Positions 8,449 to 48,289 of a stretch of DNA of 64,000 nt are shown piece by piece (position 1 is the stretch's first letter; each line of letters begins with the position of its first letter). The notes under the pieces are model-generated. The model had not been told where the DNA came from and made no database searches. It saw only the letters and a program-made list of their open reading frames with translations. A program made the position numbers and the translations under genes. This DNA comes from an uncultured Fibrobacterota bacterium (GTDB lineage Bacteria > Fibrobacterota > Chitinivibrionia > Chitinivibrionales > FEN-1185): contig CAVWBU010000016.1 of the NCBI GenBank assembly GCA_963753345.1, positions 128,001 through 192,000 on the forward strand, written 5' to 3'.

Positions 8449-8500
8449 ATCTTATAATCCTGTTAGGATCTTGTTAGGAAAAGGTTACAATTCTGTTATG
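8449..8500 (-). promoter_or_regulatory. Putative Pho-box array upstream of pstC (5 repeats, 11-bp period)
   Basis: Plus-strand TCTTA/TGTTA/TGTTA/GGTTA/TGTTA starting at 8450, 8461, 8472, 8483, 8494. Confidence 0.8.
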
Positions 8501-8517
8501 TGTTTCTCTTGGGTAAT

Positions 8518-8545
8518 AGAGGCCGGCCCTGTAGGGCCGGCCTCT
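8518..8545 (-). terminator. GC-rich hairpin after porin gene (terminator or mRNA-stabilising stem)
   Basis: AGAGGCCGGCCCT-GT-AGGGCCGGCCTCT perfect inverted repeat; weak U-tract. Confidence 0.65.
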
Positions 8546-8566
8546 TGCCCGTTGGATGTTCTGCAC

Positions 8567-9769
8567 TCAGTAGTCGAATTCACCGTTGAGAAAGACCTTG
8601 TTCGCGGTAATGCTCGCGCCCAGAACTCTGGGTTTCACGCGCTGATAGTCGAGCGCGAATTTCACGTTCTTGACCGGCGAATACTGCACACCGGCGAGCA
8701 TCGTCTGGCCATCGTTGGTGCTCCAGTAATTCCTGGAAGAAGCGAGGTCAAACCTGCCAAACACCTCAAGTTCCTTTATGATGTTGTACATTGCGTACAG
8801 GGAAACGCCGTTGGCGTCGTGGAGCCTGATGCCCCCCTGGCTCACCTGGTTGTCGTATTCCAGGCCGATCTTTGCCTTGTCGAGAATGTTGTACCCGACA
8901 AACGCGGCAATGGTTTTCTGTGCAGAGTCCTGGGTATTTTTCCGTTCGGGCATCCAGTCGCCGTACACGTAGATGGTCAGGTCCTTGATGGGATTGGCCT
9001 GCACCGCACCGGCAACCTTGTAGTCACCGAATGCATCCTGATTTGCTTTGTACCCTTCGCCGTTGGTGACCCCGAGCGTGATCTTAACCAGGTCCAGGAT
9101 ATTGACCATTGCCTTTGCGCCCAGATCCGCGCTGGACTCCCAACTCAGCTGATCCATGAGAGTCTTATAGACATACCGATGGCCCCAAAACGACTCCATC
9201 ACGTCAAAGGCGAAATAGGACATCTGTCCAGCGGTGATGGTCGTCAACGGGATCCCCTTGAATGCGACGTATGCGGTCTTCACGTATGCAATATAGGAGT
9301 CGTTAATTTTGAGCGACAACGGACCCTCCACCGACACTGTATTAAGATTGGTGGTTTTACCCGTATCCACTTTAACGGTACTACCCACGTTACTGTTGTT
9401 GGGTGCCGTATACGGATCGATGCGCTGAACATCCAACATCGCTTCCGTTGAGAATGCCTTGTTGATTTTGTAATCGTAACCAAGGTACACACGGGTCAGT
9501 TCAATCAGTGATTTTTCCGTTAGGGTGGCTGGAGCGTTCTGGGTTACATCATAGTTCCAGTCCGCATAGATCTTCCCTATGACTTTTCCCTCAGGCTTGT
9601 CTTCCGCAGGTTTCGGGGCCGGAGCCTTTGTTTCGGCCGGGGCTTCCACGGGAGCAGCCTGAACCGCCGCCTGGGTCGTATCCTGGGGCTTGTCTTGCGC
9701 CGATGATGCCATGACACCACCTGCGGCAAGCACACACGACAGAATCATTAATACGGTTGTGATGCGCAT
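8567..9769 (-). CDS. Outer-membrane porin, probably phosphate-selective (OprO/P-like)
   Basis: Signal peptide, Pro/Ala-rich linker, amphipathic beta strands, ends EFDY; lies between pstS and pstC. Confidence 0.75.
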   Translation of the reverse strand: MRITTVLMILSCVLAAGGVMASSAQDKPQDTTQAAVQAAPVEAPAETKAPAPKPAEDKPEGKVIGKIYADWNYDVTQNAPATLTEKSLIELTRVYLGYDYKINKAFSTEAMLDVQRIDPYTAPNNSNVGSTVKVDTGKTTNLNTVSVEGPLSLKINDSYIAYVKTAYVAFKGIPLTTITAGQMSYFAFDVMESFWGHRYVYKTLMDQLSWESSADLGAKAMVNILDLVKITLGVTNGEGYKANQDAFGDYKVAGAVQANPIKDLTIYVYGDWMPERKNTQDSAQKTIAAFVGYNILDKAKIGLEYDNQVSQGGIRLHDANGVSLYAMYNIIKELEVFGRFDLASSRNYWSTNDGQTMLAGVQYSPVKNVKFALDYQRVKPRVLGASITANKVFLNGEFDY

Positions 9770-9836
9770 TTTCTTTCATCCTCCTATTATTGGTTATCGG
9801 AAATGTGATGGATTCGTTTGCCTTAGAAGAATCGCG

Positions 9837-10889
9837 TTACTTTGCGTAAACCGCTTTTCCGTCCTGCGCCTTGATCTGATCCGCCCAGGTTTTTTCCACT
9901 ATGTCAATAACCGCCTGCGGAATCGGAACATAGTCGAGTTCCTCGGCCATCTTCTGGCCGTTGGCATAGCACCATGCGAAAAAGTTCAAGGCTTCGAGGG
10001 CCCTGTCGGGTTTTTCCTGGGACGTGTGCATCAGGATGAAGCTTGCGCCCGTGATGGGCCAGCTCTCTTTGCCGGGCTGATCGGTGAGCACAAGGTAGAA
10101 GCCGGGGGCGTTCTTCCAATCTGCATGAGCTGCGGCCGACTGAAACGTGCCGCTGCTGGGATTAAGGAAACCGCCCTCGTGGGAAGCCAGCATGGTGTAG
10201 GCGAGCTTGTTCTGAAGCGCATAGGCATATTCCACGTACCCGATCGCGCCCGGCGTCTGTGCGGTAAAGTTCGCCACGCCTTCGTTGCCCTTGCCGCCGA
10301 TGCCCACCGGCCATTCGACAGAAGTGTTGTTGCCGACTTTGTCTGCCCAATCCTTACTCACTTTCATCAGGTAGTTCGTAAAAAGGAACGTCGTCCCCGA
10401 CCCGTCAGAACGGTGCACCACGGCAATGTCCTGAGCGGGAAGTTTTACGCCTTTGTTGAGCTTTACAATCGCCTTGTCGTTCCACTTCTTTATCGTGCCG
10501 AGATAAATATCTGCCAGGACCGCACCGGTAAGTTTCACTTCGCCGGCCTTTATTCCCTGGATGTTGACAACAGGAACCACGCCGCCCATAATCATGGGCC
10601 ACTGTACCAGGCCGTCCTCTTTGAGCTTGTCCGGCTTGAGCGGCATGTCGGATGCGCCGAAATCAACGGTCTTTGCCTCGATCTGCTTGATGCCGCCGCC
10701 CGAGCCGATGGACTGATAATTAAGGCTTATGTCCCTCTGCGCCTTGTAGGCCTCCGCCCACTTCGAATACACGGGATACGGAAACGTTGCGCCCGCTCCG
10801 GTGATTTCTCCCGCCGACGCGCTCAAAGGCATGGCCAGGCATGCCAGCGACAGCGCCAGACCACCAACCTTGACGATACGTGCCTTCAT
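9837..10889 (-). CDS. pstS: Phosphate-binding periplasmic protein PstS
   Basis: GAGATFPYP, GSGGGI, DFGASD, RSDGSGTT, GKGNEGV. Confidence 0.97.
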   Translation of the reverse strand: MKARIVKVGGLALSLACLAMPLSASAGEITGAGATFPYPVYSKWAEAYKAQRDISLNYQSIGSGGGIKQIEAKTVDFGASDMPLKPDKLKEDGLVQWPMIMGGVVPVVNIQGIKAGEVKLTGAVLADIYLGTIKKWNDKAIVKLNKGVKLPAQDIAVVHRSDGSGTTFLFTNYLMKVSKDWADKVGNNTSVEWPVGIGGKGNEGVANFTAQTPGAIGYVEYAYALQNKLAYTMLASHEGGFLNPSSGTFQSAAAHADWKNAPGFYLVLTDQPGKESWPITGASFILMHTSQEKPDRALEALNFFAWCYANGQKMAEELDYVPIPQAVIDIVEKTWADQIKAQDGKAVYAK

Positions 10890-10961
10890 GGCAGACTCCT
10901 TCTGTTAATGGTGAAACGTTAAACCGAATATGAATACAAAGGGTTTCCTGCTGACAATGGG

Positions 10962-11119
10962 TTGTTAGCATCCCGTGAGTGATGCCGCAGCCCTGTGTGA
11001 CGTTATGGCGTTCGCCGCCTAATGTGCCATTGGTTTCGCAATCATGGATTTTGCAGAACGCTAATAAAATCACTGGCAACCGTTATCGCACGATGTGGAA
11101 CCGATTAGTTTTTCGTTAG
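10962..11119 (-). promoter_or_regulatory. Putative Pho boxes upstream of pstS
   Basis: TGTTAG/CGTGAG/CCGCAG/TGTGAC with the conserved A at 10967, 10978, 10989, 11000; second pair GATTAG/CGTTAG at 11107/11118. Confidence 0.65.
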
Positions 11120-11175
11120 CGGAATTTCCAGCCGGCAACTGCGCCACGAACGAAAGACCCTTGGTCCCTTTTCGA

Positions 11176-11416: not shown

Positions 11417-12079
11417 TCACTCGTAAATTGCGAAATGCTTTCCCCGGTATCTTGGCTGCCGCCATGCATTAATCCTGTCCGGAAAGTCGGAGACCACTCC
11501 GTCAATTTCCATTGCTTCCATGAGAAGAAATTCCTCTTCGCTGTTGACAACCCGCGCAACAACTTCCACGCCATGGTCGTGGCATTCCTCGACAAGTCCG
11601 GACGTCACATGGCTCTTGTCCACAAAAACGCAATGCGCCCCCATTTGCGCAGCATACTGTATCGCCACGAGGGGCGCCCCCAGAACAATGCAGCCGATGC
11701 GGATATTCGGATCGTAGCTTTGCACCGTCTTGACCATGGTGAAATCCTGGCTTGACACAATAAACTGCGCATACTTCCAGGTCCTGCGGAATATGGCATT
11801 GTGGATTTGCCGGACAACGTGTGACGCGGCCTGCGCTCCGCTTATGGTGATGTGGAGGCTTGTGCTGCCTTCCGCAATTCTTATCGCATTAGCAAGCAGG
11901 AATGTTCCGCGCAGTTCATCCGCAGGGGCCAGCAGGTGGGTATCGGGATCGACCGGCATGCAGCCTTCATCGCCCACATCCACACCCACCCAATCTGCAC
12001 CCGCATGCACCGACCTGACAACGCACGCAACCATATCGCCCGCTTCGGCGCAATTTGCAAAACATTGTAGCCGCGCCAT
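11417..12079 (-). CDS. Glycerophosphodiester phosphodiesterase-fold protein, degenerate active site
   Basis: GADWVGVDV, IVSSQDF, HGVEVVARVVN, IDGVVSDFPD match GDPD; the N-terminal AHRG motif is absent. Confidence 0.75.
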   Translation of the reverse strand: MARLQCFANCAEAGDMVACVVRSVHAGADWVGVDVGDEGCMPVDPDTHLLAPADELRGTFLLANAIRIAEGSTSLHITISGAQAASHVVRQIHNAIFRRTWKYAQFIVSSQDFTMVKTVQSYDPNIRIGCIVLGAPLVAIQYAAQMGAHCVFVDKSHVTSGLVEECHDHGVEVVARVVNSEEEFLLMEAMEIDGVVSDFPDRINAWRQPRYRGKHFAIYE

Positions 12080-12352
12080 GATGCATCCCCTGTTGTCAAG
12101 CTTAACGATCCATGAAAGCGCCGGCCAGCAGCCTCGTAAGGGTCGGACCGATATTGCCGCGCGCTTCGGCGGGCATGCGGGTTCCATGGGATTTGAAGAG
12201 CTTTGTGAAAAAATCGGCGCTTAATCCTGAAAGAAAAATGGAAGGGAAGGCAAGCACGGAGGTTTTATTGCGAGAGGAAGTGCTTGCCCCCCTTCGAAGA
12301 AGACGACTGCAGAGAATGCCCTGTTCGCGCACGCGCTGAAACCGGAGCATGA

Positions 12353-12715
12353 TCATTCCTGGAATGCGAGCGCGCCGCGCCTGCGACCCACCGTCGAACG
12401 CGCATAGTGGGGGTACATGACAAAGAGGTGTCCCGGATTGTCGCCGGCCTCGATTGGCACGTCGGTGAGCACGGACTGTGAAAACCCTTCACTTTCGGCA
12501 ATGAGCGAATACACCGCAGGGGACACGTTGATGATAACAAAGTTCCCGTTCCCGTCGGTGTATGCGAACCGGCCGGTCTCGCGAATCCACACACGGCTGT
12601 GCCCGATGCCGGTTCCGTCCATGTCAAGGACCTTGCCGCGAATGTGGCCGAGCCTCGGGTCCATGCCCGATGTTCCGCTGCTCAAGTCGGCATTGAAGGT
12701 GAAGACGTAATTCAT
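12353..12715 (-). CDS. Stand-alone carboxypeptidase-regulatory-like (transthyretin-fold) domain protein
   Basis: GHIRGKVLD...YTDGNGNFVI.NVSPAVYSL.AESEGF; GGAGG RBS; no signal peptide. Confidence 0.75.
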   Translation of the reverse strand: MNYVFTFNADLSSGTSGMDPRLGHIRGKVLDMDGTGIGHSRVWIRETGRFAYTDGNGNFVIINVSPAVYSLIAESEGFSQSVLTDVPIEAGDNPGHLFVMYPHYARSTVGRRRGALAFQE

Positions 12716-12760
12716 TGGTTCCTCCTTTTCTCTTTTTCCACCTATAAAAATGCCTTGCAG

Positions 12761-12800
12761 AAATTAGGCCGTTCTGAGGTCTTTGTTAGAAATTCGCAAG
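12761..12800 (-). promoter_or_regulatory. Putative Pho-box array
   Basis: AATTAG/TCTGAG/TGTTAG/CGCAAG, conserved A at 12766, 12777, 12788, 12799. Confidence 0.65.
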
Positions 12801-12913
12801 AAACCTCCACCAACCGCAACCGCTTGTGGTGCAAGCCGGTGCGTCATGGCGCGCAGGGCAAAAACCCTCTCGGGCACAAAGGCCGACCGCGCCACACCAC
12901 GCACCGCAATACA

Positions 12914-14122
12914 TTAATTCGTTTGCCCGTTTGCATGATCGGCATCCACGCGATGTTTCCCAAAAGCGGGAATCAGTTGCGAGGAAAAGAACGAAACGAG
13001 CGGCACCGTCAGAATAACGGCGATGCTGCCGCTAACGGCTTGAATGATGTAGATGGCGATCATATTGTTGTTTATCAACTGATAATACTTTACATTCCAG
13101 GAATAGAGCAGGATCAAAATATTGAGCGATGTTCCCGTGAAGGCGATAATAAGGGTATTTGCCATGGTACCCATCATGTCGCGCCCCACGTTCATGCCGG
13201 AATTGAACAACTCCTTGGCCCCCAGCCTGCTGTTACTTGCATGCACTTCACGCACCGAAGCTGCGATGGAAATGGCAATATCCATGATGGCGCCCAGCGA
13301 GGAGATAAGGATCGCCGCGAACAAAAGTTCGCCGGCCTTCATGTGCGTCTTTCCCGCAATCTGGATGAGCACGTCAGCCTCATTGGCGCTGAACCCTGAA
13401 AGGTGGGCGATTTTCAGGGCCGCCAGGAGAAAAAGCCCCGACGCCGCAACCCCGGCCATTGTGCCGAGAATGGCGGAAAAAGTCTTGGCGGTAAAACCTC
13501 CGAGCAGGACCAGCGTCACGCAAAGGCTCACCACCACCACGCCGATCGAAGCAAAGGCGGGAGAATAGCCCCGATACAGCATGGGAATAAAAAGGAAGAT
13601 GATACCCGTAAAGGTGAAAATGATTCCCAGAACGGATCTGACACCCCGGCTTCCACCAATGGCGCAGAGAACCGCGAAAAACAAAAGGACCAGCGCATAG
13701 AGGTAGAATTCCCTGTCGTAACTGTAAATCCAGGCATCGTAGGTATTCTTATTGGCGGTGTCGATGCAGACGATTACCCTGGTGCCGGCCCTCGCTCTCA
13801 CATTAATGGAGTAGTTGAGCGTGTTCCGGGCAGATATTACCTCGCCTTTGTGCTCGCCGGTGAGAACCTTGATTTTAAGTGCCTGAAACCCCACGTCCAG
13901 ATCGGTGGTTTTATCTCTTGTCAATGCTTCTTTCTCCACCGCCATAACGCGCGCTTTTTCATACCGGACATAGGCGCCGGAAGCCGAGCTGTACAAATGA
14001 GGGATTCGCGTCTGGTGGTTAAAAAGGAATATCAGACCCAGATAAATCGCCAACGCCGCGCATCCGGCAAGCGTTCGCACAATCTTACTGTTTGTTAACT
14101 TTTTTATTGTCAGGTTGATCAT
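12914..14122 (-). CDS. YibE/F family membrane protein
   Basis: ISSLGAIMDIAISIA, SGMNVGRDMMGTMANTLIIAFTG. Confidence 0.9.
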   Translation of the reverse strand: MINLTIKKLTNSKIVRTLAGCAALAIYLGLIFLFNHQTRIPHLYSSASGAYVRYEKARVMAVEKEALTRDKTTDLDVGFQALKIKVLTGEHKGEVISARNTLNYSINVRARAGTRVIVCIDTANKNTYDAWIYSYDREFYLYALVLLFFAVLCAIGGSRGVRSVLGIIFTFTGIIFLFIPMLYRGYSPAFASIGVVVVSLCVTLVLLGGFTAKTFSAILGTMAGVAASGLFLLAALKIAHLSGFSANEADVLIQIAGKTHMKAGELLFAAILISSLGAIMDIAISIAASVREVHASNSRLGAKELFNSGMNVGRDMMGTMANTLIIAFTGTSLNILILLYSWNVKYYQLINNNMIAIYIIQAVSGSIAVILTVPLVSFFSSQLIPAFGKHRVDADHANGQTN

Positions 14123-14156
14123 TCTTCGTTCTTTGCGCCGCCATTGCGCGTCTAAG

Positions 14157-14189
14157 CAATAATCCACCCGCGCAGCAGGTGGATTATTG
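14157..14189. terminator. Intergenic hairpin between phosphatase and YibE/F genes
   Basis: CAATAATCCACC...GGTGGATTATTG 12-bp stem. Confidence 0.5.
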
Positions 14190-14204
14190 CCGAGAAATAA
14201 GTAA

Positions 14205-15851
14205 TCAGGGCTGGATCAACGCCAACGGCAGGTTCCCTCTGTGAGGCCCACTGATCCTGAGCAGGTAAAAGCCGGAGCGCAGAGATCCCGACAAAGGAAC
14301 CTGTTGTGCGCTGCCCGTAAAGACTCTTTTCCCCAGATCCATCACCTTTGCGCCAGAAGCGCTGAAGATTTCGAGGCGGGCCGTTCCCTCCAATCCCTCG
14401 ACCATCAAGAATCCTTGGAACAAACGGGCAGCCAGAGACACACCGAGCCGGCCGGCCTTGGAGGTCGGCATGGCCTTGACAGAACCATTCTTGATAATGG
14501 TGTAGCTGTCGATCGGCGCTGCCTGATTGCTTGCGTTGATCGCGTAGGTGACGATGGAAAACGTATCGCTGTGGATCTTGACGCAGGAGAATGTCGGCTC
14601 GTTCTGCTGCCAGTAGAATGCAGAGTATACCGGGAGGGTTGTATCCCCGTTTACCACGAACGATGAGTTGATCGGGTAGAATTTGCTGCCGCTTCCGGAA
14701 TTAAGGGTCATGTAAAGGGTACCCTGGGGATTTACGGTTTTATTTGTTTCCCCGGTTCTCGACACGGGCAGTCCTCCGAGCATCTGGTACGACCTGTTGT
14801 AGGTGTGGTCGTGACCCGACATGACAACGTCGATGCCATACTTGTCAAAAACCGGCGGATACGCGCTCCTTCTGAATAGAATATCGGCGTCCAAAGCGTG
14901 ATCTGCATCGCTGTATAAAGAATGATGGAAGTTCACGATTTTCCACATGGTCTTCGGGTTGAGCGCTATGGCCTGGCCGATAAAGACATCGTGCGTCGCG
15001 GCGCTTTGGGTGTTGCTGTTGATCACCATGAACAGGGTGTTGCCATAGGTAAACCAATAGTCGCCGTCGTTTCCGTATGCGGTGGCTCCGTCCTGCGCCG
15101 ACTGGTTGGGCAGGTTATAGTGGTACCCGTAATAATGGCCAAGACCGTAGTCATGGTTTCCGTCTATTGTGGCGACGGGGAGGCCAAGCAATTGCGGCGG
15201 GCTGAAGTAGCCGTTGTACTGCGGATCGTCACCCGCTTGCGACGTTGTATTATCGATCTGATCGCCGAGTGAAAGCATAAAGCTGGCATTTGAAACCGAT
15301 TGCGTTGCGACGGCAACTGCATTCTGCCAGCCGAGAGTGTCGTAACCAAGAACGTCGCTCGCTTGCGCGGGGGGTTCGAGCGCACCGCCCGTTGAAGCAC
15401 CGATCTGCGGATCGCCCACCGCGATGATGGTGAAGGATCCGGTGTCTCTGGTCTGGATCGTGTGAAAATCGCTCCACGTCGAGTCGTGGCCGACGCGGTA
15501 CGTGTAACTGGTGGAAAGCGCAAGCCCGGTCACCGTCACCTTGTTCTGATACCATCCGGCCAAAATGACTCCCGCGGTTGAATCATAGAGCGCTTGAGAC
15601 GACATGTTGCCGGTGAATTTCGCAGTATCGCCGCCGCTTGTTTTGACGATTTGAACCGCGGGCGTGTGAGGCGCAGCAGTTGCCCAGGAGAAGCAAAGCT
15701 GCGAGGCATCGCTGCCCGGAGTGATGTTGAGCCAGGAATTGGGGACGTGCACTCCATCGGGAACGCCCGCAATCGCGGGTGCTAATGAAAGCAAAACTAT
15801 CGCCAGTGGCGCCAGCAGTAACTTCCTGCATTTTCCGAGTTTGATAGACAT
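14205..15851 (-). CDS. Secreted purple acid phosphatase-type metallophosphoesterase with T9SS-like C-terminal domain
   Basis: FN3-like N-domain, GDPQ, LGDQ, GNHD, FHH, SGHDH; tail LEIFSASGAKV...SGFYLLRI. Confidence 0.88.
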   Translation of the reverse strand: MSIKLGKCRKLLLAPLAIVLLSLAPAIAGVPDGVHVPNSWLNITPGSDASQLCFSWATAAPHTPAVQIVKTSGGDTAKFTGNMSSQALYDSTAGVILAGWYQNKVTVTGLALSTSYTYRVGHDSTWSDFHTIQTRDTGSFTIIAVGDPQIGASTGGALEPPAQASDVLGYDTLGWQNAVAVATQSVSNASFMLSLGDQIDNTTSQAGDDPQYNGYFSPPQLLGLPVATIDGNHDYGLGHYYGYHYNLPNQSAQDGATAYGNDGDYWFTYGNTLFMVINSNTQSAATHDVFIGQAIALNPKTMWKIVNFHHSLYSDADHALDADILFRRSAYPPVFDKYGIDVVMSGHDHTYNRSYQMLGGLPVSRTGETNKTVNPQGTLYMTLNSGSGSKFYPINSSFVVNGDTTLPVYSAFYWQQNEPTFSCVKIHSDTFSIVTYAINASNQAAPIDSYTIIKNGSVKAMPTSKAGRLGVSLAARLFQGFLMVEGLEGTARLEIFSASGAKVMDLGKRVFTGSAQQVPLSGSLRSGFYLLRISGPHRGNLPLALIQP

Positions 15852-16183
15852 GGGTTTCTCTCCTTCATGAAATTTCTTTTTGTCCTAGGATGATTTTCGC
15901 AATACAAAATTTGTCAAATGAGCTTCAAACTATTGAAATGACCGTTTGTCTGCGAACCAGACCATTTTTTTTGCAAGACCGTATTGCTGCAACGTGCTGG
16001 AATAATTCCTCCTTTTCCTGAAACCTTGCAACGAATTTCGACTCCACATCGATGTTTCGCATCAACCACCTCCTCCTTGCTTTGTTGCCTTGCAACAAAA
16101 TGTTTCGTGTTTCCCCAACATATCACCGGACCGACGATGTCGGCATTACCTCACCTTGTGCCGCGTTAAAATATCGCAGGCAG

Positions 16184-16224
16184 GAATTAGAACGTGGTGT
16201 CAATCCGGTTATTTGTTTGTTAGG
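16184..16224 (-). promoter_or_regulatory. Putative Pho boxes upstream of the phosphatase
   Basis: AATTAG/GGTTAT/TGTTAG, A at 16189, 16211, 16222 (multiples of 11). Confidence 0.5.
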
Positions 16225-16304
16225 AGACCGGCGTCGCGCTTTAGTTGTATTTGTCAATTATGATAAGAGTAGTGACGGGCTTTTGTCCGGGAAACAGGGC
16301 AAGA

Positions 16305-17186
16305 CTATACTGAGGAAACCGGATACATTTCCTGCGAAGAATTCTGCAGCCCACGCGGCGGTTCGAGGAAACACGAGAGCTCTTTGTCCTGGATCAGAAG
16401 CATCTCCCGCGCCGCCGGCCGCTGCGACCGGCATTCAGCGTCAACAGCGGTTTCCATTTTCTTGAGGTCAACGGGGAAAAGCTCGGCGGCCAGTCGGCAG
16501 CATTGCGCCGCTGTTTCATGCCTGACGCGGGAGAAAAACGGCGTTTCGCCGGGGATAAGACACGATGAGAACCCCTCGTCGTACGGAATGGAAAAAGGCA
16601 CCACCCGGCCGGGATAGCGCTTCTGCAGAGCGGCAAGCGGACCGGCCGGGTTGGGCAACTCCCGGAGGTAATTCGGGACAATCTTCCACTTCATCTTTGA
16701 ACCCAGTGCCGACGAAAGTTTTTCAAGGCTTCGAAGTGACGGCATACAAAGATCGGTGGGAACGCATATTTCATCCGCGGCACGAAGCGAGATCTCCTGA
16801 ACGCGGCCCATGCCCGGCGGCGTGTCGATTATCACAAAATCGTAGGCAGCTTCCAGATTGAAAAACCTGAACCGCTTCCTGAGGTGTTCCGGATCGGAAG
16901 TGCCTCTGTCGCACCAAGCCGTGGACAAAGCAGCAGCGTCGAGGTTCGGTGCCGCATTCTTTCTTATGACCCGTTCAAGGATGCCGGACGCGCAGACCTT
17001 TGAGGTCCGCAGCGACGGCTCCTCCCTTTCCGCTCCACCCATCGCATCGGACAAATGGTTCTGGCAGGAGTCCATGTCCACGGCCAAGACGCGGTATCCG
17101 GCAAGGGCCAGCAGGCGGCACATCATGAGACCCAGGGCAGTCTTTCCTGTGCCACCTTTATAATGGAATAGGGTGACGGTTTTCAT
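16305..17186 (-). CDS. Orphan ParA/Soj-family ATPase
   Basis: KGGTGKT deviant Walker A, VLAVDMD, YDFVIIDTPP. Confidence 0.88.
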   Translation of the reverse strand: MKTVTLFHYKGGTGKTALGLMMCRLLALAGYRVLAVDMDSCQNHLSDAMGGAEREEPSLRTSKVCASGILERVIRKNAAPNLDAAALSTAWCDRGTSDPEHLRKRFRFFNLEAAYDFVIIDTPPGMGRVQEISLRAADEICVPTDLCMPSLRSLEKLSSALGSKMKWKIVPNYLRELPNPAGPLAALQKRYPGRVVPFSIPYDEGFSSCLIPGETPFFSRVRHETAAQCCRLAAELFPVDLKKMETAVDAECRSQRPAAREMLLIQDKELSCFLEPPRGLQNSSQEMYPVSSV

Positions 17187-17267
17187 GGTGCTCAATTGTT
17201 TTTACATTGCGGTGAAGAACTTTTTTCACAACGTATGGTTGCAATATAGACGAACAAAAATGTTTAT

Positions 17268-17460
17268 CCATGAGATTCTTATTAGAATTCTGCGAGACAG
17301 GGCTACAGGGCTGTTTGGGAAGTACTTTGAGAAGCTAAAGAGGATAATTGCACCGCTCGTAACCATTATGGAGGCAAATAGAATTAATAAGGCGGCAGAT
17401 TAAAATGATACCTGATTAACCTCAACCAATTTCTAACAAAACCCTTACTAAATCATCATA
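17268..17460. promoter_or_regulatory. Divergent promoter region with two putative Pho-box arrays
   Basis: Towards parA: CATGAG/TATTAG/TGCGAG (A at 17273, 17284, 17295). Towards DUF2934: CTAACA/CTTACT/ATCATA at 17433, 17444, 17455. Confidence 0.55.
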
Positions 17461-17563
17461 CATCCAGGATATTTTAAAATCGCGGTACTTAAAATAAGGA
17501 TTTTTCAATAAAAAATATTGAAAAATTCTGCACACAAACAATTATTCTCAAAAGAGGTACGAC

Positions 17564-18549: not shown

Positions 18550-18595
18550 ATCACAAAGGTATGGCGGGCCAACTAGATATATAGGGAGAAAATGG

Positions 18596-21591: not shown

Positions 21592-21601
21592 GACGCTTTC
21601 G

Positions 21602-35258: not shown

Positions 35259-39746
<4,488 letters not shown>

Positions 39747-40143
39747 TCGTAAATGTTGATGCCGCCCCAGAGGCCGCGGTTGTTGTCGTTTATCGCCAGC
39801 GGCGCTGAGGGGTTTGTGTCTTTGTACGCGGTGAAAATGATAGAATGAGCATGCTGGTGCTGGTGGCATAGACGCGGCCGTCCCGGGCAACGATAAGCAT
39901 GGTGGTGGAATCGGTGTTTGTTTCCGCCTCGCCAAGAATGGTCGTTCCGGCCTGAATATTAAGTCGCGATCCGGCCTTGACGACAACTTTTCCGTGAAGA
40001 ACATAGATGTTTGATGCTACCCAGTTCTTAGTTACTCCAGCAGGAATGCTGTCGTTGGTGATGTCGATTCGCGCCGCCGAAACCTGCGCAACAAGCCCAG
40101 CCATTGCCAAGACCCCTAGAACGCTAGAACGCTTGCAAAACAT
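39747..40143 (-). CDS. Secreted protein of the TBDR-associated beta-helix type (truncated by homopolymer tract)
   Basis: Signal peptide, WVASNIYVLHGKVVVKAGSRLNIQAGTTILG...LIVARDG; GGAGG RBS. Confidence 0.7.
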
Positions 40144-40321
40144 AGACCCCTCCCCGGAAAATTGTGATGTTTGTTCCCACATTGACAAGTAGTATACAAC
40201 GCGGGAGTTAAAGGAATTCCACATCAGTTTGTTGTTGGACAAAGTCGGGCGCTTCTGAAACGCAGGCTGCCGCAGATCCACACACCCTTCTTTTGCAATT
40301 GTCCTAAAAGATAACCGCAAT

Positions 40322-40529
40322 GTGTTAGTTTGCTGCAAGATTTGAGATAGGATTTCGCTCAGGTCAGGGTTTTTTAACTTATTACATCTTTATTACAAAC
40401 ACTCGCGCTTCACTGCCCACCGATGCGCCGCTGCCAAAGGCAATCATTACACATGAATGTCTAAAGCCATAGGGCCCCAAAAGTGCGGCTCAAACCAAAA
40501 CATAACGACCGCCTCGCAGTCCCCTAACC
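40322..40529. promoter_or_regulatory. Divergent promoter region with putative Pho boxes
   Basis: Leftward TGTTAG/TGCAAG/AGATAG (A at 40327, 40338, 40349). Rightward ATTACA at 40381/40392 and CAAACC/ATAACG/CTCGCA/CTAACC at 40491, 40502, 40513, 40524. Confidence 0.55.
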
Positions 40530-40613
40530 ATTGCAATGCATTTTTGCCATTCACGAACCAGAGACCCCCGGTTCCGCCTTCTTTCATTCACGATTTAGGA
40601 AAGGAATTTCCGC

Positions 40614-41426
40614 ATGCGATCCTTGATCCTCATTGTATCGGCAGTGCTTATGGCACTGCCCACGGTCGTTTTCACGGAGGAGCAGCCCGTCGCGTCCGAA
40701 GAATTGGTGCGATTCCGCAAAGAACTCACCCATATCCAATCGGAGCGCCAGAGGAACCGCGTTGAGCGCGAGGCCGAGGCAAAGGACTACCAGGCTTATC
40801 AGGGCCGCACCGCCGCCCGCATGGCCCAAGTGTGCGCCGAAACCGACTCTATCAACAGCGAAGCGGCGAAATCCCGACGCACCGGCTATTCTCTTTCTGC
40901 ACTTGTCAATGCATTTACGGATAAGAAGAAGCAGGTGGAGCTGTCGAAGGACAATCTCCGTCAAAGGCTTGCGCGCTCGTGCGACGCACTCGACTCTACG
41001 GTGAGCGCATTCCCCCCGCTGGCGCGCGGACGCATCAGTTCGTCGCTGGCTCTTGTCAAAAGCGAACTGTTGGCCCGGACCATGGAAAGCGCGGAGGCGT
41101 TCGCCCGTCTGTCGCAGGCCGTGTCCCTGGCGCGTGACGCCTCCTCCTCGATAGAGGCCTCACAGGAAAACTCGCCCGTCGCGGACATTCGCGGCCAGGT
41201 GAGCCGCCTGCGTGTGGGGACCCTGTTTGAAGCTCTGGCCGACCAGAAAGCCGAAAAGTGCCTGGTGTGGCGGAGCAACGCCGAACAGCTCGAAGCCCCG
41301 TGGCTGCCGTGCGCCGACCGTTCGGCCCCGGAAAACATCGTGAAAGCCGTGGCAATCCGTGAGGGAAAAGCCTTGCCGTCCTTTGTGGTTTTGCCTCTGG
41401 CCGCTCCTGCCAAAGGGGGCCGGTAA
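40614..41426 (+). CDS. DUF3450-like periplasmic coiled-coil protein
   Basis: Signal peptide, coiled coil, LRVG...A, AVAIREGKALPSFVVLP; first gene of Ton operon. Confidence 0.65.
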   Translation: MRSLILIVSAVLMALPTVVFTEEQPVASEELVRFRKELTHIQSERQRNRVEREAEAKDYQAYQGRTAARMAQVCAETDSINSEAAKSRRTGYSLSALVNAFTDKKKQVELSKDNLRQRLARSCDALDSTVSAFPPLARGRISSSLALVKSELLARTMESAEAFARLSQAVSLARDASSSIEASQENSPVADIRGQVSRLRVGTLFEALADQKAEKCLVWRSNAEQLEAPWLPCADRSAPENIVKAVAIREGKALPSFVVLPLAAPAKGGR

Positions 41427-42895
41427 TGAAGCCATTGACCCTAACGCTCATTCTGTTCTGCGCACTGCCAGCACTCGCGGGCCACGATTCCGAAAAGACG
41501 ATGCGGCTGCGGCAGGCTGCCGAAGCTTACCGCAAGAAAAGATGCGCTCGAAGCGGCGCGTGATTCTCTTGAAAACGAAACGGCGGCCCGTTATTCGCTC
41601 AAGCAGCAATGGGTGGACCAGCGCGAGGCAGACAAGCAGGAGCTCGACCGCCTCAGAGAAGTCGAGGAGCGAAGCGTCAACGATTTGGCGCGCGTCAAGG
41701 AAGAATGTCTTGCAAAGGAGGCCACGCTTTCCGAGGAACGCAAGAACGCCGAGGCGGCGGCCGAGGAGTGGAGCTACGTTCGTTCGTCTCTGTCCGATGC
41801 GCTCAAGAAAGAGGCCGACGCGATAGCCGAGGCGTTTCCGCTCGACGCGGAGCAGCGGCGCGCTGAGTTGGAAAACATCCGTGCCTCGTTTTCGCAGCGC
41901 GGCGATCCGGCGCTCTCCTGGGACGCCTTCGTCGCGTACGTGCGCGAAGACCTGCGCCGAAGCGGTTCGATATTGCTTGTCAAGCGCGACGTGCTGCTTG
42001 ACCAGGGAGCGATCCACTGGCTCACCCTCGCGCGTTTCGGCAGCGTGTTCGCCCTCGGCGTGGACACCTCCGGCCAGCCTTACATGATACGCCATACCGG
42101 CCGGCTGGGCGCCGAGCGGTATTCGACGGACAGGATCGGCTCGCCGGAACTCACCTCCTTCGTGGCTAACGTGATGCCGGCGTGGATACGAGACAACGCG
42201 GTAAGCGGCACCGTGATGGCGGAGGTGCTGCAGAACGATCAGGGGCGCATGCTCGTTGCCGGCAAGAAACAGTCTTCGCTGCAGGAGCTTTTCGCGTCGT
42301 TTCGGGCCGGAGGCCTGGTGATGATTCCGCTGCTGTTCCTTCCGTTCTGGGCACTCTGGCTCACTATTGGCAAGGGCCGGCAGATCTACTCGCATCGGCG
42401 GCGCTTTGCGCGGCAATTCAAGACCGCCATGCGTTACCTTGACAACAACGACATTCCAGCGGCGCTTTCCTATGCGCACGGTGAAAAAGGTGTCATGGCG
42501 CGCATCCTCGAAACCTGCCTCGAACGCAAGGAGCATGGAAGGCACGTAAGCGAACGCGTCGTGCGGGAGCTCGATCATGCAGGAGGTCCCGGTGGTAGGC
42601 AGAGGCATCAACACCCTTGCGGTGATCGCCGGCGCCGCGCCGCTCCTCGGCCTCCTTGGGACCATCAGCGGCATGATCACGCTGTTTGCGGCGGTCACCC
42701 ACTACGGCACCGGCGATCCGAAGTTTCTGGCGGGGGGCATCTCCGAGGCGCTCATCACCGCCAAGACCGGTCTGGCCATCGCCATCCCGGTGCTCTTTAT
42801 CCACGACTTCGTCCGCAATGGCAAGGACAGGATGCTGTCGGAGATCGACCGCCTGTCCATTGCGGCAATGAACCGCATCTGGCCCGAGGACTTAA
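41426..42895 (+). CDS. Large ExbB/MotA-family protein with N-terminal periplasmic extension (TtpC-like; frameshifts near 41525 and 42575)
   Basis: GGLVMIPL, AAPLLGLLGTISGMI.LF, GDPKFLAGGISEALITAKTGL. Confidence 0.8.
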
Positions 42896-42898
42896 CGG

Positions 42899-43523
42899 GT
42901 GTTGCACTTATTTGTCAAGCTTTTCGGCGAGGGCGGATGGGTGCTCTACCCCATTTTCGGCGTCTCCGTGCTCGCCCTGTATATCGCATTCGGAAAGGCG
43001 CTGGCCATTACGCAGCTCGAACACGCGCATCGCGCCTTTTGTGCCTCCGTGGAAGGCGCGGGGATTTTCAAGGAAACGGGCAGCCCGGCGCTCGACCGGC
43101 TGGTCCGCGAGATCAAACGGCATGCGGGCCGTGCCGACCGCATCGAGCGGGCGGCCGCCGATTGCATGGCCGAGATTGCGCCGCAGCTTGATGCGGGCAT
43201 GGCCACCATCGGCGCGTGCGTGGTCATCGCGCCGTTGCTCGGCCTGCTCGGCACCATTAGCGGCATGAACCGGATGTTCGACGTGATCGGCCGGTTCGGT
43301 TTCGGCAATCCCACCATCATGTCCAACGGCATAAGTATGGCGCTGCAGGCCACGCTCACCGGGCTCACCGTTGCCGTGGCGGCACTGCTGTTTCAGGACT
43401 TTTTGTCAAACAGGAAGTCGAGAATTCTGCATCGGCTCGACAGCGACATCACAAACCTTGTGCGGCGCGCCGAAAAGGCCGCGCAAACTCTAAACCCGAC
43501 TGCGCTAAAGGAGCACGCCGTGA
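42899..43523 (+). CDS. exbB: ExbB/TolQ proton-channel protein
   Basis: GGWVLYPI, APLLGLLGTISGM..F, GISMALQATLTGL; true end uncertain. Confidence 0.8.
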
Positions 43524-43930
43524 ACCCTGAGTACCGCCTCCTCCCCGACCAGCACGAGAAGCCCGAGATCAACCTCGCGCCTTTTGTGGACACGATGATG
43601 ATCCTGCTGATCTTCTTTGTGGTCACGGCCAACCTGTACGTGGAAACCGGCGTCGACGTTACCAAGCCCAAGGCGCAGACTGCGCGGCCCGTGGGACAGA
43701 AATCCATCCTTGTGGGCATTACACGCGAAGGAACGGTGCACCTGTACGGCCGCCAGGTGAGTCTCGACAGGCTGAAACTGCTGATGGAGCAGGAAACGGC
43801 AAAACAGCAGGATGTATCCGTGGTCATCATCGCAGACCGCTACGTGGCCACGGGCCGCACCGTGGAAGTGATGGACCAATGCAGTCTTGGGGGCGTTCAG
43901 AAAATCTCCATTGCGGCCGGCAAGGAATAG
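43520..43930 (+). CDS. exbD: ExbD/TolR protein
   Basis: AAGGAG RBS before GTG 43520; INLAPFVDTMMILLIFFVVT, VVIIAD, VEVMD. Confidence 0.85.
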   Translation: MNPEYRLLPDQHEKPEINLAPFVDTMMILLIFFVVTANLYVETGVDVTKPKAQTARPVGQKSILVGITREGTVHLYGRQVSLDRLKLLMEQETAKQQDVSVVIIADRYVATGRTVEVMDQCSLGGVQKISIAAGKE

Positions 43931-43934
43931 CACA

Positions 43935-44575
43935 ATGCCGATTTTAACTCAAGGTGCGCTTGTGATTGCCAGACTGGCCGCCGCTGTGGTGGTTAGCTTT
44001 CTGCTGTTTGTCTCGGTCTCTCTGCTGCACGGCATGTTTGGCGGGCCGCATCCAAAGGAAGAAAACCGGGCGCGCAGACAGGTGACACTTGTTGAAGTTG
44101 TCAAGAAACAGGAGCCTGAGCATGTGATGCAGAAACAGCACATCCGCGCGATAACCAGCATTGCAAAGGGGTCAAGCGGCGGCAGCGGTCAGATGGCGAT
44201 GCGCATAACGCCGGACCTGAGCATCGACGCCGGGCCGGAGGGAAACGGTGGCGTTGTCCTTCAATCGCAGGAACTCGCCGCAGAAGTTTTCGAGGAAGGC
44301 CAGACCGACGAGGACCCAATGCCGATTTACAAGCCGGAAGTCCCCTAATCCCGAGCAACTGCGTGACCAGGGTGTCGAGGGCGTGCTCGAAGGGATGTAT
44401 GTGATCGATCACAACTGAACGGTAATCTCGGCTGGATATTAATGCCGCGCCTCACCCCCTGCTTGCCTCAGAGGCGCGCCGGGTTGTTTCAACCTGGCGT
44501 TTTAAGCCCGCCAAAAACAAAGGGGTTCCGGTGAGCATCCGAATCCATCTTACGATTGACTTCCGGCTGGAGTGA
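43935..44575 (+). CDS. tonB: Energy transducer TonB (frameshifts 44340-44450)
   Basis: N-terminal TM; C-terminal QGVEG, WRFKPAKNKGVPV...IDFRLE. Confidence 0.75.
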
Positions 44576-44579
44576 GCGA

Positions 44580-45520
44580 ATGGCGAAAAGAACCGTGATC
44601 GTTGCATTCGTTCTCGGCTCTTGCCGTACTCCCGATTTCGGCCGCGCCTCTCCTCGATCAAGCAAACCGGGAATATGCCGCCGGTAAGTGGACAAGTGCA
44701 GTCCGTCTGTACAAACAGGCAGCCAGAGAAGGTGAAAACCCGGCGCTCTGCTATTTCAATGCGGCTAATGCTTGGTACCAGATGGACAGCCTTGGGTAGG
44801 TTTATTGGTGTACTACCGTTCAACAATAGATTGCGCTCCATCCTTTTTCTAGGCATACCTCAACCTTGCGGCTGTTTACTATTCACTCAATGATCTAGGC
44901 AACTGTATCGCATGCATGCGTGAGGGGATCAAACTCGAACCCGCCAATCAGAAGGCCCTGCTTATCCTCGCTGCGGCCTACCGGAAATCCGGCGCACTTG
45001 CACAGAGCATCGCGGTATTTTGAGACCCTTGCACGGCTGTATCCGGACATGGAGGAACCGTGCATTGCATTGGGAAGAAATGTACCGCGACCTTGACGAT
45101 CAGGACATGGCGGTGCGCTGGCTTCTGGCCTATCCCGCAGGCGGTAAAATCCTCTCCGATGTCTATTCGCTCCTGGCAGGGCTTTTTGAGGCGGACAACG
45201 ACTTCAACAGGGCACTGTACTATCTCGACCTGTCATTTGCGCGAGACAACGGCAAGAAGGGGACGCTGCTTCACATCGCGCAACTCCAACGCACAACGGG
45301 AAACGATATGGTGGTGTTGGAAACCGCCCGCGACGGCATGAAGCGATTTCCGGACTTTCCCGACCTCGCCCTCCTGGCCGGGAGCATCGCATTTGAGCAC
45401 GGCTGGTTCGACGAAGCCGAGCGCTGCTTTTCCGTTGCGGCCCAACACGGTAGCGCCAACGCGGTGATTGGCCTCCAGAACGTGAGAAACAGACGCACGG
45501 CGTCTGATTCTGCGAGATAA
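44580..45520 (+). CDS. Tetratricopeptide repeat protein (several frameshifts)
   Basis: ANREYAAGKWTSAVRLY, YFNAANAWYQ, YLNLA; TPR pattern throughout. Confidence 0.7.
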
Positions 45521-46315: not shown

Positions 46316-46864
46316 TCAATGCAAGCAACCGCGCCGTGACGCCGGCCTTGATCCTGCCGGCAAGAAATAGCTCTTGACAATATCAAGGCACAGTCCGGTA
46401 GCAATCACCCCCGTCAGGTAGGCGAAAAACGGAGAACTACGGTAACCAAAATTTGCCGCGGCAAAGCTCATGAGGGTTGCCCACAACAGGAAAATAAAGG
46501 GGTTCGTTATGTTAATAAGAAAGCCAGACAGGAATCCTTTAAGCAACGGCACAGGATCGGAATATTCAGAAGCAACCATTGTCGCATTGGGCCTTGTGAG
46601 CAGCATACCTATTCCCATGCAACACAATATTGCTCCGCAGATGATTCCGGCGGCGCGTCTGTGCTGGAATGGCTGGATCAGACGGAAAACGCCGAAGTAG
46701 TTGACGGCAAGAAAGACAATGATGCCAGTGAAAAGACCAGCCACAACCGAGAGACCTGCACGGAAGCCCCGGCGCAGGCTCGTATGAAAGTTGATCAGCA
46801 CCCCCGGGCCGACGCCAATGGCCATGACCAAGGCTGTCAAAATTCCTTTTGCCAAGGGGGACAT
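46316..46864 (-). CDS. LysE-family translocator
   Basis: IGVGPG...SLRRGFRAG, GFLSGFLINITNP. Confidence 0.82.
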   Translation of the reverse strand: MSPLAKGILTALVMAIGVGPGVLINFHTSLRRGFRAGLSVVAGLFTGIIVFLAVNYFGVFRLIQPFQHRRAAGIICGAILCCMGIGMLLTRPNATMVASEYSDPVPLLKGFLSGFLINITNPFIFLLWATLMSFAAANFGYRSSPFFAYLTGVIATGLCLDIVKSYFLPAGSRPASRRGCLH

Positions 46865-46957
46865 TATCTATCCCTTATGATGGTCATATTCATGGGGTTC
46901 TCTTAAAGGATACCGCCTTCCCACTTCTTATGGTGACTTAAAGAATTTACCGCGCCG

Positions 46958-47200
46958 TCATGAGCTTTCGATGATCTCGCCGTTAGAAATTTCTAAGGAC
47001 GGCAGCGGAAGTGAAACATGTGGTTGATGGAATACTTCATTACCATATCGGAAATCGCACCGGACACCGTATCCTTTTCGAACCTGATTGCAGAAATGAC
47101 TTGCACCTATTCGGGTTCGAAAGGAAAGAAAACGTGCTGTTGCGGCAATTTTGCTGCATACGCAGTCCATTTCTAACAAGACCATCACACGATTCTAAAG
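46958..47200. promoter_or_regulatory. Divergent putative Pho-box arrays
   Basis: Leftward CATGAG/GATGAT/CGTTAG/TCTAAG (A at 46963, 46974, 46985, 46996). Rightward CTAACA/ATCACA/CTAAAG at 47173, 47184, 47195. Confidence 0.55.
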
Positions 47201-47221
47201 AATGAAGTTTAGTTTTATTGA

Positions 47222-47613
47222 ATGAACAGATATGATATCTTGATTGTCGAAGACGATCCGTTCATCAGCGAGCTTATTGTGGTCACGCTCTCATCAACGT
47301 TTTATGCCATAACCTGTGTCGACACCGGCACCAAGGCCTTTACACAACTCTCTGAACATAAACCCGACCTCGTCCTGCTCGACATACTGATTCCTAACCC
47401 GACGGCTGGGCCGTCTACAAGGCCATCCGAAAAAACCCCGAACTTTCAAATACCAAGGTAATCATTCTCACTGCCTTGCCAATAGGGCGCGAGGCACTGC
47501 GGCAGAAAAACATCCAGCCGACAGACGCGTTCATGACAAAACCGTTCGAACTGGACGAGTTACGGATGAAAGTGAATACCATGCTTTCCGGCGCAGCGGC
47601 AAACCCGGGTTGA
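47222..47613 (+). CDS. Single-domain response regulator (frameshift near 47400)
   Basis: ILIVEDD, PDLVLLDI, then VIILTA, FMTKPFELDEL. Confidence 0.82.
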
Positions 47614-47654
47614 CGCCGCCGGCGATTCGGGCCGCGTTTTTTCCTGAAAAACGG

Positions 47655-48203
47655 TTATTTCCCCGCACTGCGACGACCGGCGTCCGTTTTATTCACGGAC
47701 ACCGGCTTCGTTGCCTCCCGCCGCCGAACAACGTTCTTTCCTGGTATCGGCGTCAGCGTTTGAGACCGCTCATGTTTTTCCTTCCGTATTCCGGCCGCCT
47801 CCTCATCCTGCTTGCGGCAGGCTTCCATGAGAAGCATCATCGGGTTCTCGCGGATTGTCGTTGTCACGCCGGCAGGCTCACCCGAAAAGAACGAAAATTC
47901 CCCTTTTGTAATCCTGAGCGCCTTCCAGAGAGCACTGTGGCCGCCGTCAATGCCGGTTTCCGCATGCACGATGTTGCCGCCATGCACGAATACCGTGCAG
48001 GGGACCGCGTGCGTTCCCATTCCCTCCGGGTAAAGTTCGAGCCTTCCGGTCTTCGCGGTCTGCACGAGCAGTTGCACCACGTCAAAAACACAGCATTCGT
48101 CAAGCTGTCCCTGCAAACCGGCACCCGGGCGCTGGCGCAACATCCCCTGCGGTGCAATCGACGCCACGCCGACTTTTTCTATCCAATCCGGCAAATGGTC
48201 CAT
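47655..48203 (-). CDS. DUF4388 domain protein
   Basis: LQGQLDE..VFDVVQLL...KTGRL, GNIVHA, GEFSF, MLLMEACRKQDE. Confidence 0.85.
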   Translation of the reverse strand: MDHLPDWIEKVGVASIAPQGMLRQRPGAGLQGQLDECCVFDVVQLLVQTAKTGRLELYPEGMGTHAVPCTVFVHGGNIVHAETGIDGGHSALWKALRITKGEFSFFSGEPAGVTTTIRENPMMLLMEACRKQDEEAAGIRKEKHERSQTLTPIPGKNVVRRREATKPVSVNKTDAGRRSAGK

Positions 48204-48249
48204 ATGTTTCTCCCGTATGGGTGGTTACCATAAATAAAATGTCAAGATG

Positions 48250-48289
48250 AAATTAGGGGATTCTGATGGTTTCGTTAGAATTCCGCGAG
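48250..48289 (-). promoter_or_regulatory. Putative Pho-box array
   Basis: AATTAG/TCTGAT/CGTTAG/CGCGAG, A at 48255, 48266, 48277, 48288. Confidence 0.65.

Follow-up and report, generated by a model that had tools for sequence, protein, structure and literature searches.

Phosphate limitation is sensed in bacteria by the established PhoR/PhoB-PstSCAB-PhoU pathway. In Escherichia coli the regulator PhoB binds Pho boxes, and its residue R201 contacts a base. The TT(A/T)ACA repeat of Bacillus PhoP may be closer to the repeats described here than E. coli CTGTCAT. The nearest published consensus that we found is the cyanobacterial SphR box CTTAACCT with at least three repeats and 3-bp linkers (PMC1906773). 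Here we describe related boxes in a window of 64,000 nucleotides (C16:128001-192000, GenBank contig CAVWBU010000016.1) from an uncultured Fibrobacterota bacterium of the order Chitinivibrionales. The host metagenome-assembled genome (MAG), G000, comprises 4.5 Mb and is 94% complete. The DNA sequencing runs containing the window originated from peat, freshwater sediment and soil; no RNA run with it was found among the sequencing runs listed. A preliminary description of the window had reported hexamer arrays in 11-bp phase, oriented towards gene starts, between 8.4 and 48.3 kb, and inspection confirmed them. Judged from the sequence, this clustered Pho regulon is real and its mechanism is the textbook one; its half-site and the recognition helix of its regulator differ from those we found described. 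The boxes are very probably Pho boxes read by the window's own PhoB (4196-4888).

The motif was learned solely from other genomes. An unseeded Gibbs sampler was applied to 24 pstS upstream regions from outside the family of the host and returned the consensus CTAACA-N5-CTAACA, identical to the result of an earlier run on 11 promoters. The dominant half-site core is CTAACA; the more degenerate core CT(A/T/C)(A/G)CA proposed earlier was not borne out. The exact word CTAACA was counted 14 times over the window compared to 3.5 expected per 64 kb. For genome scans genes were masked with a rough gene caller written for this analysis. A position weight matrix (PWM) of the unit, derived from pstS promoters of other families, placed seven of the claimed sites among the top 18 matches in G000 (pstC 34.1, pyk 28.8, PHP-GT4 20.0, receiver 16.9, DUF3450 side 15.9, DUF2934 14.8 and parA 13.0). 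Seven of the 32 non-coding matches scoring at least 12 were located in the region, with an expectation of 0.34. A composite model of 47 bp, consisting of three units and the -10 element, was trained on 50 pstS and PHP-GT4 promoters (47 used) from other families. Eight of its ten best genome-wide matches fell within 8.4-48.3 kb. At scores of at least 10 this island, which makes up 0.9% of the genome, contained 12 of 47 matches (0.42 expected), and after training on pstS alone it held 7 of 14 at scores of at least 12. The composite model was fitted by 23 of the 24 pstS promoters from outside the family. Three-unit core arrays with a period of 11 were found at 16 positions in the island (0.44 expected), and periods of 9, 10, 12 and 13 gave 1, 0, 1 and 1. 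Because the boundaries of the region had been picked in the preliminary description, a sliding 40-kb window was used as a further control: ten matches in the island compared to a maximum of three among 630 windows elsewhere.

The repeats stand in a fixed relation to predicted promoters. For the -10-like hexamer an A in second and a T in sixth place were required, and offsets were counted from the C of the best half-site. Such a hexamer lies at 15+11k in 14 of the 15 sites, compared to 1-6 sites for the other ten phases. Since this phase had first been spotted by eye in the same sites, the relatives are important as a check. Among these, phase 4 was matched by 15 of the 21 PHP-GT4 promoters with a box and by 10 of the 24 pstS promoters; the pstS promoters also matched phase 1 in 13 of 24 cases, which is due to the repeats themselves. 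In the E. coli promoters of pstS, phoA and phoB, read by eye, the -10-like hexamer starts 15 nt past the G of the last GTCA. This spacing agrees with the reported position of the Pho box "10 bp upstream of the -10" (PMC1906773), and a strict spacing between PhoB box and promoter has been described (PMC10294691). On this evidence the repeats are placed at the standard Pho-box distance from the predicted promoters.

The boxes were also followed through related genomes. The congeners G002 and G004 possess the island with shuffled gene order, G005 has a reduced version, and in all three the boxes accompany the first gene of each unit through the rearrangements. The operon-internal genes yibE, yncE, DUF4389 and phoB showed no box. 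Congeners with orthologues of 35-80% identity retain box and -10 element, and the boxes proposed at parA, DUF2934, DUF4388, the receiver gene and pyk recur in relatives. Across six families, 21 of 29 relatives have a box scoring at least 10 before PHP-GT4, compared to 0.69% of 3321 other upstream regions of G000, a background rate that would be higher in AT-richer genomes. Off-island paralogues carried no box: ParA 0 of 6, DUF2934 0 of 5 above a score of 3.5, and none at the second TonB operon on contig C24. The ordinary pyk reached a score of at least 10 in 1 of 24 cases. Some AT-rich matches outside the island score 12-18 without an obvious target, and the AT-rich genome G003 has many matches, as would be expected if degenerate hexamers arose by chance in AT-rich intergenic DNA. 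Independent training, the period and sliding-window controls, the -10 phase and the conservation reduce the probability of this explanation to a negligible level. It is refuted for the ten strong sites; the lysE site and the proximal array of pstS may be chance matches. Of the 13 sites claimed in the preliminary description ten are good (pstC, pyk, PHP-GT4, receiver, DUF3450 side, DUF2934, parA, the gene ending at 12715, phosphatase and DUF4388), the site on the side of the TonB receptor is moderate, and those of proximal pstS and lysE are weak. Two further sites, 11064-11121 and 25721-25778, had been overlooked. The latter, a minus-strand site of rank 5, makes the earlier statement that no array exists in 25.7-32.2 kb wrong at its edge. 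A site at 51886, beyond 48.3 kb, lacks a -10 element, is duplicated on contig C4 and was not counted. The segment 48.5-54.3 kb has near-identical and diverged duplicates on the small contigs C4 and C5, probably a strain mixture in the MAG.

It might be argued that PhoB binds all of these sites and regulates only the genes for uptake, scavenging and lipids, the sites at lysE, parA, DUF2934, DUF4388, the receiver gene and the RNA being inert or leftover passengers. For the core genes this is compatible with the reading given above. Most PhoB sites of E. coli are transcriptionally inert (PMC10294691), and several targets are patchily distributed (lysE 5 of 81 genomes, long pyk 5 of 81 plus one remnant, RNA 3 of 81). 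However, most of the inert sites in E. coli lie within genes and are devoid of promoter elements, whereas those of the island are intergenic, sense-oriented and equipped with an in-phase -10 element. Together with the retention of box and -10 in congeners and the box-free paralogues, this renders passenger sites unlikely.

The predicted reader of the boxes is the PhoB of the window, for which TIGR02154 is the best model (248.6 bits). Relative to E. coli PhoB its recognition helix carries T194S, H198L, R200V and R201G, the last two being residues 203-204 in its own numbering; D192-R193, D196, V197 and R203 are kept. All 30 Chitinivibrionales PhoB helices examined possess V/T-G/S at the positions of R200-R201. 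An E. coli-type box (CTGTCAT with an R200-R201 helix) was not found at this locus; CTAACA and V-G stand in its place. By hand count 37 of 46 PhoB-positive genomes contain strict CTAACA-N5-CTAACA; from four genera that lack this PhoB, none of 17 genomes does. This count leaves out 12 PhoB-positive genomes with matches not all listed and six PhoB-negative genomes of other genera, among which G001, G013 and G069 have a strict match. From 80 foreign PhoB-like loci 79 were scored. A box of at least 10 was located within 250 bp of phoB at 7 of 11 loci with a V-G-type helix compared to 3 of 68 others (Fisher 1.2e-5, with a helix class set after the data had been seen and kin that are not independent). 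The seven belong to Desulfatiglandales, Kiritimatiellia, a further bacterium, the cultured Victivallis vadensis, two Phycisphaeraceae and Hydrogenedentes; the three outside the class are one spirochaete with an L-G helix and two Acidobacteria with R-R helices and (G/T)TAACA boxes. The PhoB is assigned to the boxes by association only, and the genome contains 46 response-regulator matches, so that another regulator, or the -35 element of an alternative sigma factor, could in principle explain repeats near pho genes. Against this, a genome search with the winged helix-turn-helix domain of PhoB found PhoB alone, and the helix differs in the other full-length OmpR-type protein. A tandem period of 11 bp is the signature of OmpR/PhoB regulators (PMC4415409), and the motif is missing in the PhoB-less genera and stands directly upstream of phoB in other phyla. 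We therefore regard a different reader as very improbable. Motif, phase and PhoB linkage support the earlier proposal that the arrays are PhoB-type boxes, and the CTAACA words are real and most likely PhoB binding sites.

Several observations weigh against an assignment of all boxes to this PhoB. PhoB, with the cut-off at 296 bits, and PhoR both remain under the NCBIfam equivalog cut-offs. A reversed-pattern control was as frequent as the pattern itself in most genomes, so raw counts are not enriched, and in G013 pstS is boxed although a PhoB match is absent (this genome is fragmented and 92% complete). The two Acidobacteria with R-R helices make the helix rule a tendency and not a strict relation. 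At individual sites, the pyk hexamer TATATA is the exception that fails the A2/T6 test, and the -10-like hexamer of the proximal pstS array is off register by one base. The parA box reaches a composite score of merely 6.1, and the lysE box is weak. The long pyk is boxed in G000, G001 and G004; G003 and G041, two of the five genomes, show no box sense-upstream. Finally, the relatives are kin and thus not independent samples.

Physical clustering of the regulon, as proposed in the preliminary description, is strong; confinement to the island did not hold. The strongest off-island box (rank 2-3, G000:C15:148394-148440; L131, L151) lies about 580 bp upstream of dnaA. Among 29 relatives it is kept at the orthologous place only in G002 and G004, and it was rejected as an order-wide feature (3 of 30 loci). 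A reverse-oriented box of rank 11 (G000:C35:156794-156837; L135) precedes a DUF47-pit operon by about 50 bp, where repression of low-affinity uptake is possible; the G004 island has a similar sequence at its end (C37:90379). In the congener G003 pst, pyk, parA and PHP-GT4 are dispersed over contigs C1, C9 and C38. The strong form of the clustering claim, an entire regulon inside the island, would fit the eight of ten top matches found there, the nearly box-free island flanks of G002 and G004, and the absence of boxes from ppdK and, in the 450 bp examined before ppk, from the ppx-ppk operon. In view of the dnaA and DUF47-pit sites, the dispersal in G003 and a MAG that is 94% complete it appears rather unlikely. 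With regard to dnaA, the box region holds conserved DnaA-box-like words, and in four congeners an 11-bp-spaced TTACA repeat is found about 30 bp upstream of a TTGACA-like -35 element of dnaA; it could be a reverse PhoB site or that of another regulator. Most genomes of the order possess two dnaA-like genes (G000:C15:146455-147681 and C47:156829-157989).

The first unit is a pstS-porin-pstCAB-phoU-phoB-phoR-phoU operon on the minus strand (1690..10889; Pfam, NCBIfam). It includes phoR (2373-4190), the phoB gene named above, pstC (7342-8367), a porin-like gene (8567-9769) and pstS (9837-10889). PstS exceeds the NCBIfam cut-off; the product of 8567-9769 had no family match and is taken to be porin-like from its position and a signal-peptide-like N-terminus. 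The best site of the genome is a five-unit box with a -10 element at 8446-8451 (8446..8501, minus strand), a predicted internal promoter from pstC on, which is present in G002, G004 and G014 and absent from five other listed genomes. Upstream of pstS the claimed proximal array (10960..11001, minus strand) is degenerate (unit score 9.1, rank 186 of 860). A distal box with -10 element follows at 11064..11121 (minus strand, composite 10.6), the words of which recur upstream of pstS in G001 and G002. In G000 the strongest pst site is thus the one at pstC, the pstS sites being modest.

Three further minus-strand units come next. A box at 12745-12802 (composite 19.2) precedes genes for a 120-aa CarboxypepD_reg-like protein (12353-12715) and a GDPD (11417-12187; unit 11417..12802; Pfam); this box scores at least 9 with the unit PWM in 9 of 9 copies, covering all eight family genomes. 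The unit 12914..16225 carries a box at 16168-16225 (composite 15.9; G002 15.9, G004 9.8), a purple acid phosphatase (14205-15851) and YibE/F (12914-14167), with no box directly before yibE. A ParA/MinD-like ATPase is preceded by a box at 17243-17298 (unit 16305..17298, unit score 13.0), and island parA copies are boxed in G004 (13.4), G002 (25.1) and G003 (8.9). In G002 and G004 a boxed gene for a hybrid kinase lies next to parA in divergent orientation.

On the plus strand a box at 17420-17475 (composite 20.1; 18.2 in G002) initiates the unit DUF2934 (17564-17770), DUF4389 and CMD (17420..18898). The box at 19020-19075 (composite 25.8) precedes the PHP-GT4 fusion (about 19134-21591) and a GH67-like gene (21602-23344; unit 19020..23344). 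It is followed by a box at 23386-23441, rank 2 by unit PWM, upstream of a second, long pyruvate kinase gene (23386..25530) of the PRK14725 type, which we take to be the type of Corynebacterium glutamicum Pyk2 (PMC5112673). G000 also has an ordinary pyk and PPDK, both unboxed. In G003 (C1:143975-147312) and G041 (C86:66418-69752) the long pyk is followed by two tandem thymidylate-kinase-like genes. The segment 25.9-32.2 kb is a box-free insert with a split pectate-lyase-like gene, radical SAM, FMN-binding and other genes, most of which were not detected in the islands of G002 and G004.

A minus-strand unit (33152..40352) behind a box at 40308-40352 (composite 11.6) encodes a putative secreted protein, a TonB-dependent receptor, a metallophosphoesterase and a YncE-like propeller. 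Its box scores 17.1 in G002, 8.8 in G007 and -4.3 in G004. The middle of the receptor is poly-T filler here; the G004 homologue is intact (1031 aa, TIGR01782). In the opposite direction a box at 40489-40544 (unit score 15.9) precedes DUF3450-ExbB-ExbB/ExbD-TonB-TPR (40489..45520, plus strand), an operon which is boxed in G002, G004, G007, G024, G017 and G023 as well. For the LysE-family translocator (46316..46999, minus strand), proposed earlier as a regulon member, the array at 46944-46999 exists; its box is weak (composite 4.7, rank 261 of 332). Three of its four homologues adjoin Pho-island genes, and a comparable site was found in G002 alone (7.5) and in none of the other three. A box at 47171-47215 (composite 22.8; 6.2-12.0 in G002, G004 and G005) precedes a single-domain receiver (47171..47616, plus strand), which is frameshifted here and has 127 aa in G004. 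The last box, 48236-48291 (composite 19.6; G004 18.2, G005 23.4), belongs to a DUF4388 protein (47655..48291, minus strand).

The assembly of the region contains frameshifts, among them those of PHP-GT4 and the receiver, and poly-T/A filler makes up about 2.9 kb of the claimed 40 kb (37548-39729 and 45562-46277), affecting the TonB receptor and the gene upstream of it. A biological nature of the poly-T stretches was ruled out, their length being that of the receptor sequence missing relative to G004. A poly-T/A-like run of 1.6 kb also occurs on contig C18 of G000. Palindromic repeats resembling miniature inverted-repeat transposable elements lie at about 11175-11350, 23493-23544 and 48290-48440. 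The first two show many loose read ends and the third has 14 blastn matches; one copy is inserted between the pyk promoter and the pyk gene. An identical 17-mer fitting the CTAACA search pattern recurs with 1-7-kb spacing at G000:C18:2322-20560 and on several G005 contigs, an arrangement that resembles an array of integron attC-type repeats.

Transporters and phosphorus-releasing enzymes are typical of Pho regulons (PMC4415409). To these ordinary kinds belong Pst and the porin-like gene, GDPD and two metallophosphatases, as well as the TonB receptor, which has a dedicated energiser. The GT4 can be added to them, since it belongs to a broad family that also serves phosphorus-free glycolipid synthesis; the earlier emphasis on genes not normally tied to phosphate thus calls for some qualification. 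A probable role of the ParA-like protein, receiver, DUF4388 and DUF2934 is to adapt the physiology of the starving cell. Other islands contain further candidates: a boxed gene at G003 C1:166865 is PIN-PhoH-like by eye, and LMWPc arsenate-reductase-like genes were seen at G004:C37:61486-62039, G002:C16:90207-90614 and L022, boxed in G004 and L022.

PHP and GT4 are not separate genes. One extra base at 20161, missing from the contigs of 4 of 4 runs, splits the reading frame here as an assembly frameshift. In relatives the protein is a fusion of 810-840 aa, and between 102 and 118 of 119 proteins retain the PHP metal motifs. The GT4 part, the box of which was found in 21 of 29 relatives, matches PF00534/PF13439. 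The best NCBIfam matches of the fusion are lipid glycosyltransferases far below the cut-off (NF053787, NF049988), and the PDB matches are generic GT4. The fusion is widespread (2137 matches), its close homologues being labelled Fibrobacterota, Chitinispirillaceae or Chitinivibrionales. The GH67-like gene follows directly in 15 of 30 loci; its product resembles GH67 glucuronidases (Atlas) and had no sequence match in the PDB. The islands of G002, G033, G042 and G045 contain a boxed GT21-like gene and/or a metallophosphoesterase, presumably of the PlcP-like kind. At phosphate limitation a GT4 of Desulfovibrio alaskensis makes phosphorus-free glycolipids (PMC5193443). From this precedent and the GT21-like and metallophosphoesterase genes of related islands, a role of PHP-GT4 and its GH67-like partner in the replacement of phospholipids by glycolipids appears fairly likely.

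The rank-5 promoter (box 25735-25778, -10 element 25723-25728, minus strand) faces no open reading frame. Downstream of it lies a stretch of about 145 nt (about 25570-25715; unit 25570..25778), convergent on pyk, which is 90% conserved in G001 and 72% in G004, each with its own box and -10 (20.7 and 24.3). It has no common reading frame, and three stems and a U-tailed, intrinsic-terminator-like hairpin are predicted. RNAalifold gave 35 pairs, four with two-sided change, from three sequences only. The fold z value was -2.0. No meaningful Rfam match was obtained at gathering or at E of at most 10, and a covariance model found in 81 genomes only the three training copies and three weak terminator-like matches. 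A metagenome scan yielded two copies, which are identical to G001 and G004 and hence not independent. A small RNA (sRNA) target prediction was dominated by GC content and discarded. Alternatively, the conserved stretch could be the conserved 3' end of pyk. We lean slightly towards a candidate Pho-induced sRNA.

From the observed motif, phase, spacing, clustering, conservation and PhoB covariation we infer binding and activation in the following way, the functions of all uncharacterised targets being putative. At low phosphate PhoR would phosphorylate PhoB, and head-to-tail PhoB molecules would occupy two to five CTAACA half-sites with 11-bp spacing. The last half-site would sit in place of the -35 element and recruit sigma70 polymerase to a weak -10 element (NAnnTT) 15 nt on. 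About 13 such promoters would turn on the gene island: uptake by Pst, porin and the TonB receptor with its own ExbBD-TonB, scavenging by GDPD and two metallophosphatases, and probably the replacement of phospholipids by glycolipids via PHP-GT4 and the GH67-like protein. Further outputs would be the second pyruvate kinase, the ParA-like, receiver, DUF4388 and DUF2934 proteins and a probable small RNA. A wider interpretation is speculative and at present doubtful. It holds that a PhoB subfamily of Fibrobacterota, Desulfobacterota, PVC, Spirochaetota and Hydrogenedentota with V/T-G/S for R200-R201 reads CTAACA, which would provide a usable helix-to-box rule. Here it would control a single-polypeptide lipid-remodelling enzyme (PHP stripping head groups, GT4 adding a sugar), a new sRNA with an anti-Shine-Dalgarno-like 5' stretch, a pyk bypassing the pyrophosphate-dependent PPDK and possibly dnaA.

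These results provide a Pho-box model for Chitinivibrionales and apparently for the related PhoB subfamily in other phyla. Phosphate-starvation genes of uncultured peat and sediment bacteria become readable from sequence, and uncharacterised genes, chiefly the PHP-GT4 fusion and the candidate sRNA, gain candidate functions. The weight of the finding lies less in the clustering than in the motif rule across phyla, in PHP-GT4 and in the candidate sRNA. A literature search, with subscription papers, regulon databases, figures and supplements outside its scope, found no Pho box for Fibrobacterota. CTAACA did not occur in the best 20 of 224 literature matches (motif logos such as that of D. vulgaris Fig. 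8 could bear on the novelty of the consensus), and the accessible parts of PMC4989314, PMC3547664 and PMC4832192 contain no consensus of this type.

The system shares with E. coli the 11-bp direct repeats, the -10 element that begins 15 nt past the G of the final GTCA, to which the C of CTAA corresponds here, and the linkage to PhoR, PhoU and Pst. Unlike E. coli, the half-site is CTAACA and not CTGTCAT, the recognition helix is changed and the regulon is largely clustered. The SphR box has the TAAC core, the multi-unit arrays and the 11-bp period in common with the boxes described here, in which C precedes and A follows TAAC; phylum and gene content differ. The box (c/t)GT(n)AC of D. vulgaris PhoB DVU1083 (PMC3333781) resembles a GTAAC variant tolerated here, and its targets include pyruvate metabolism and DNA polymerase/gyrase genes, a parallel to pyk and dnaA; in contrast, G and not C occupies the first conserved position there, with a 6-bp repeat and a 4-bp spacer. 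PHP-GT4 is comparable to the Agt-type synthase Dde_3613 of D. alaskensis (PMC5193443), a GT4 (group 1) enzyme tied to phosphate limitation, by its GT4 family; unlike Dde_3613 it carries an N-terminal PHP fusion and is often followed by a GH67-like gene. For a Pho-induced sRNA, Bacillus PhoS (PMC11522486) is a precedent, with 66 nt in the phoR 3' untranslated region as opposed to about 145 nt, an own predicted promoter and no Rfam match here. Finally, the phosphate islands of HIMB59 (PMC10734472) likewise consist of a variable phosphorus-acquisition cassette around pstSCAB-phoU that differs between relatives, whereas in the peat and sediment Fibrobacterota each unit possesses its own predicted Pho promoter.

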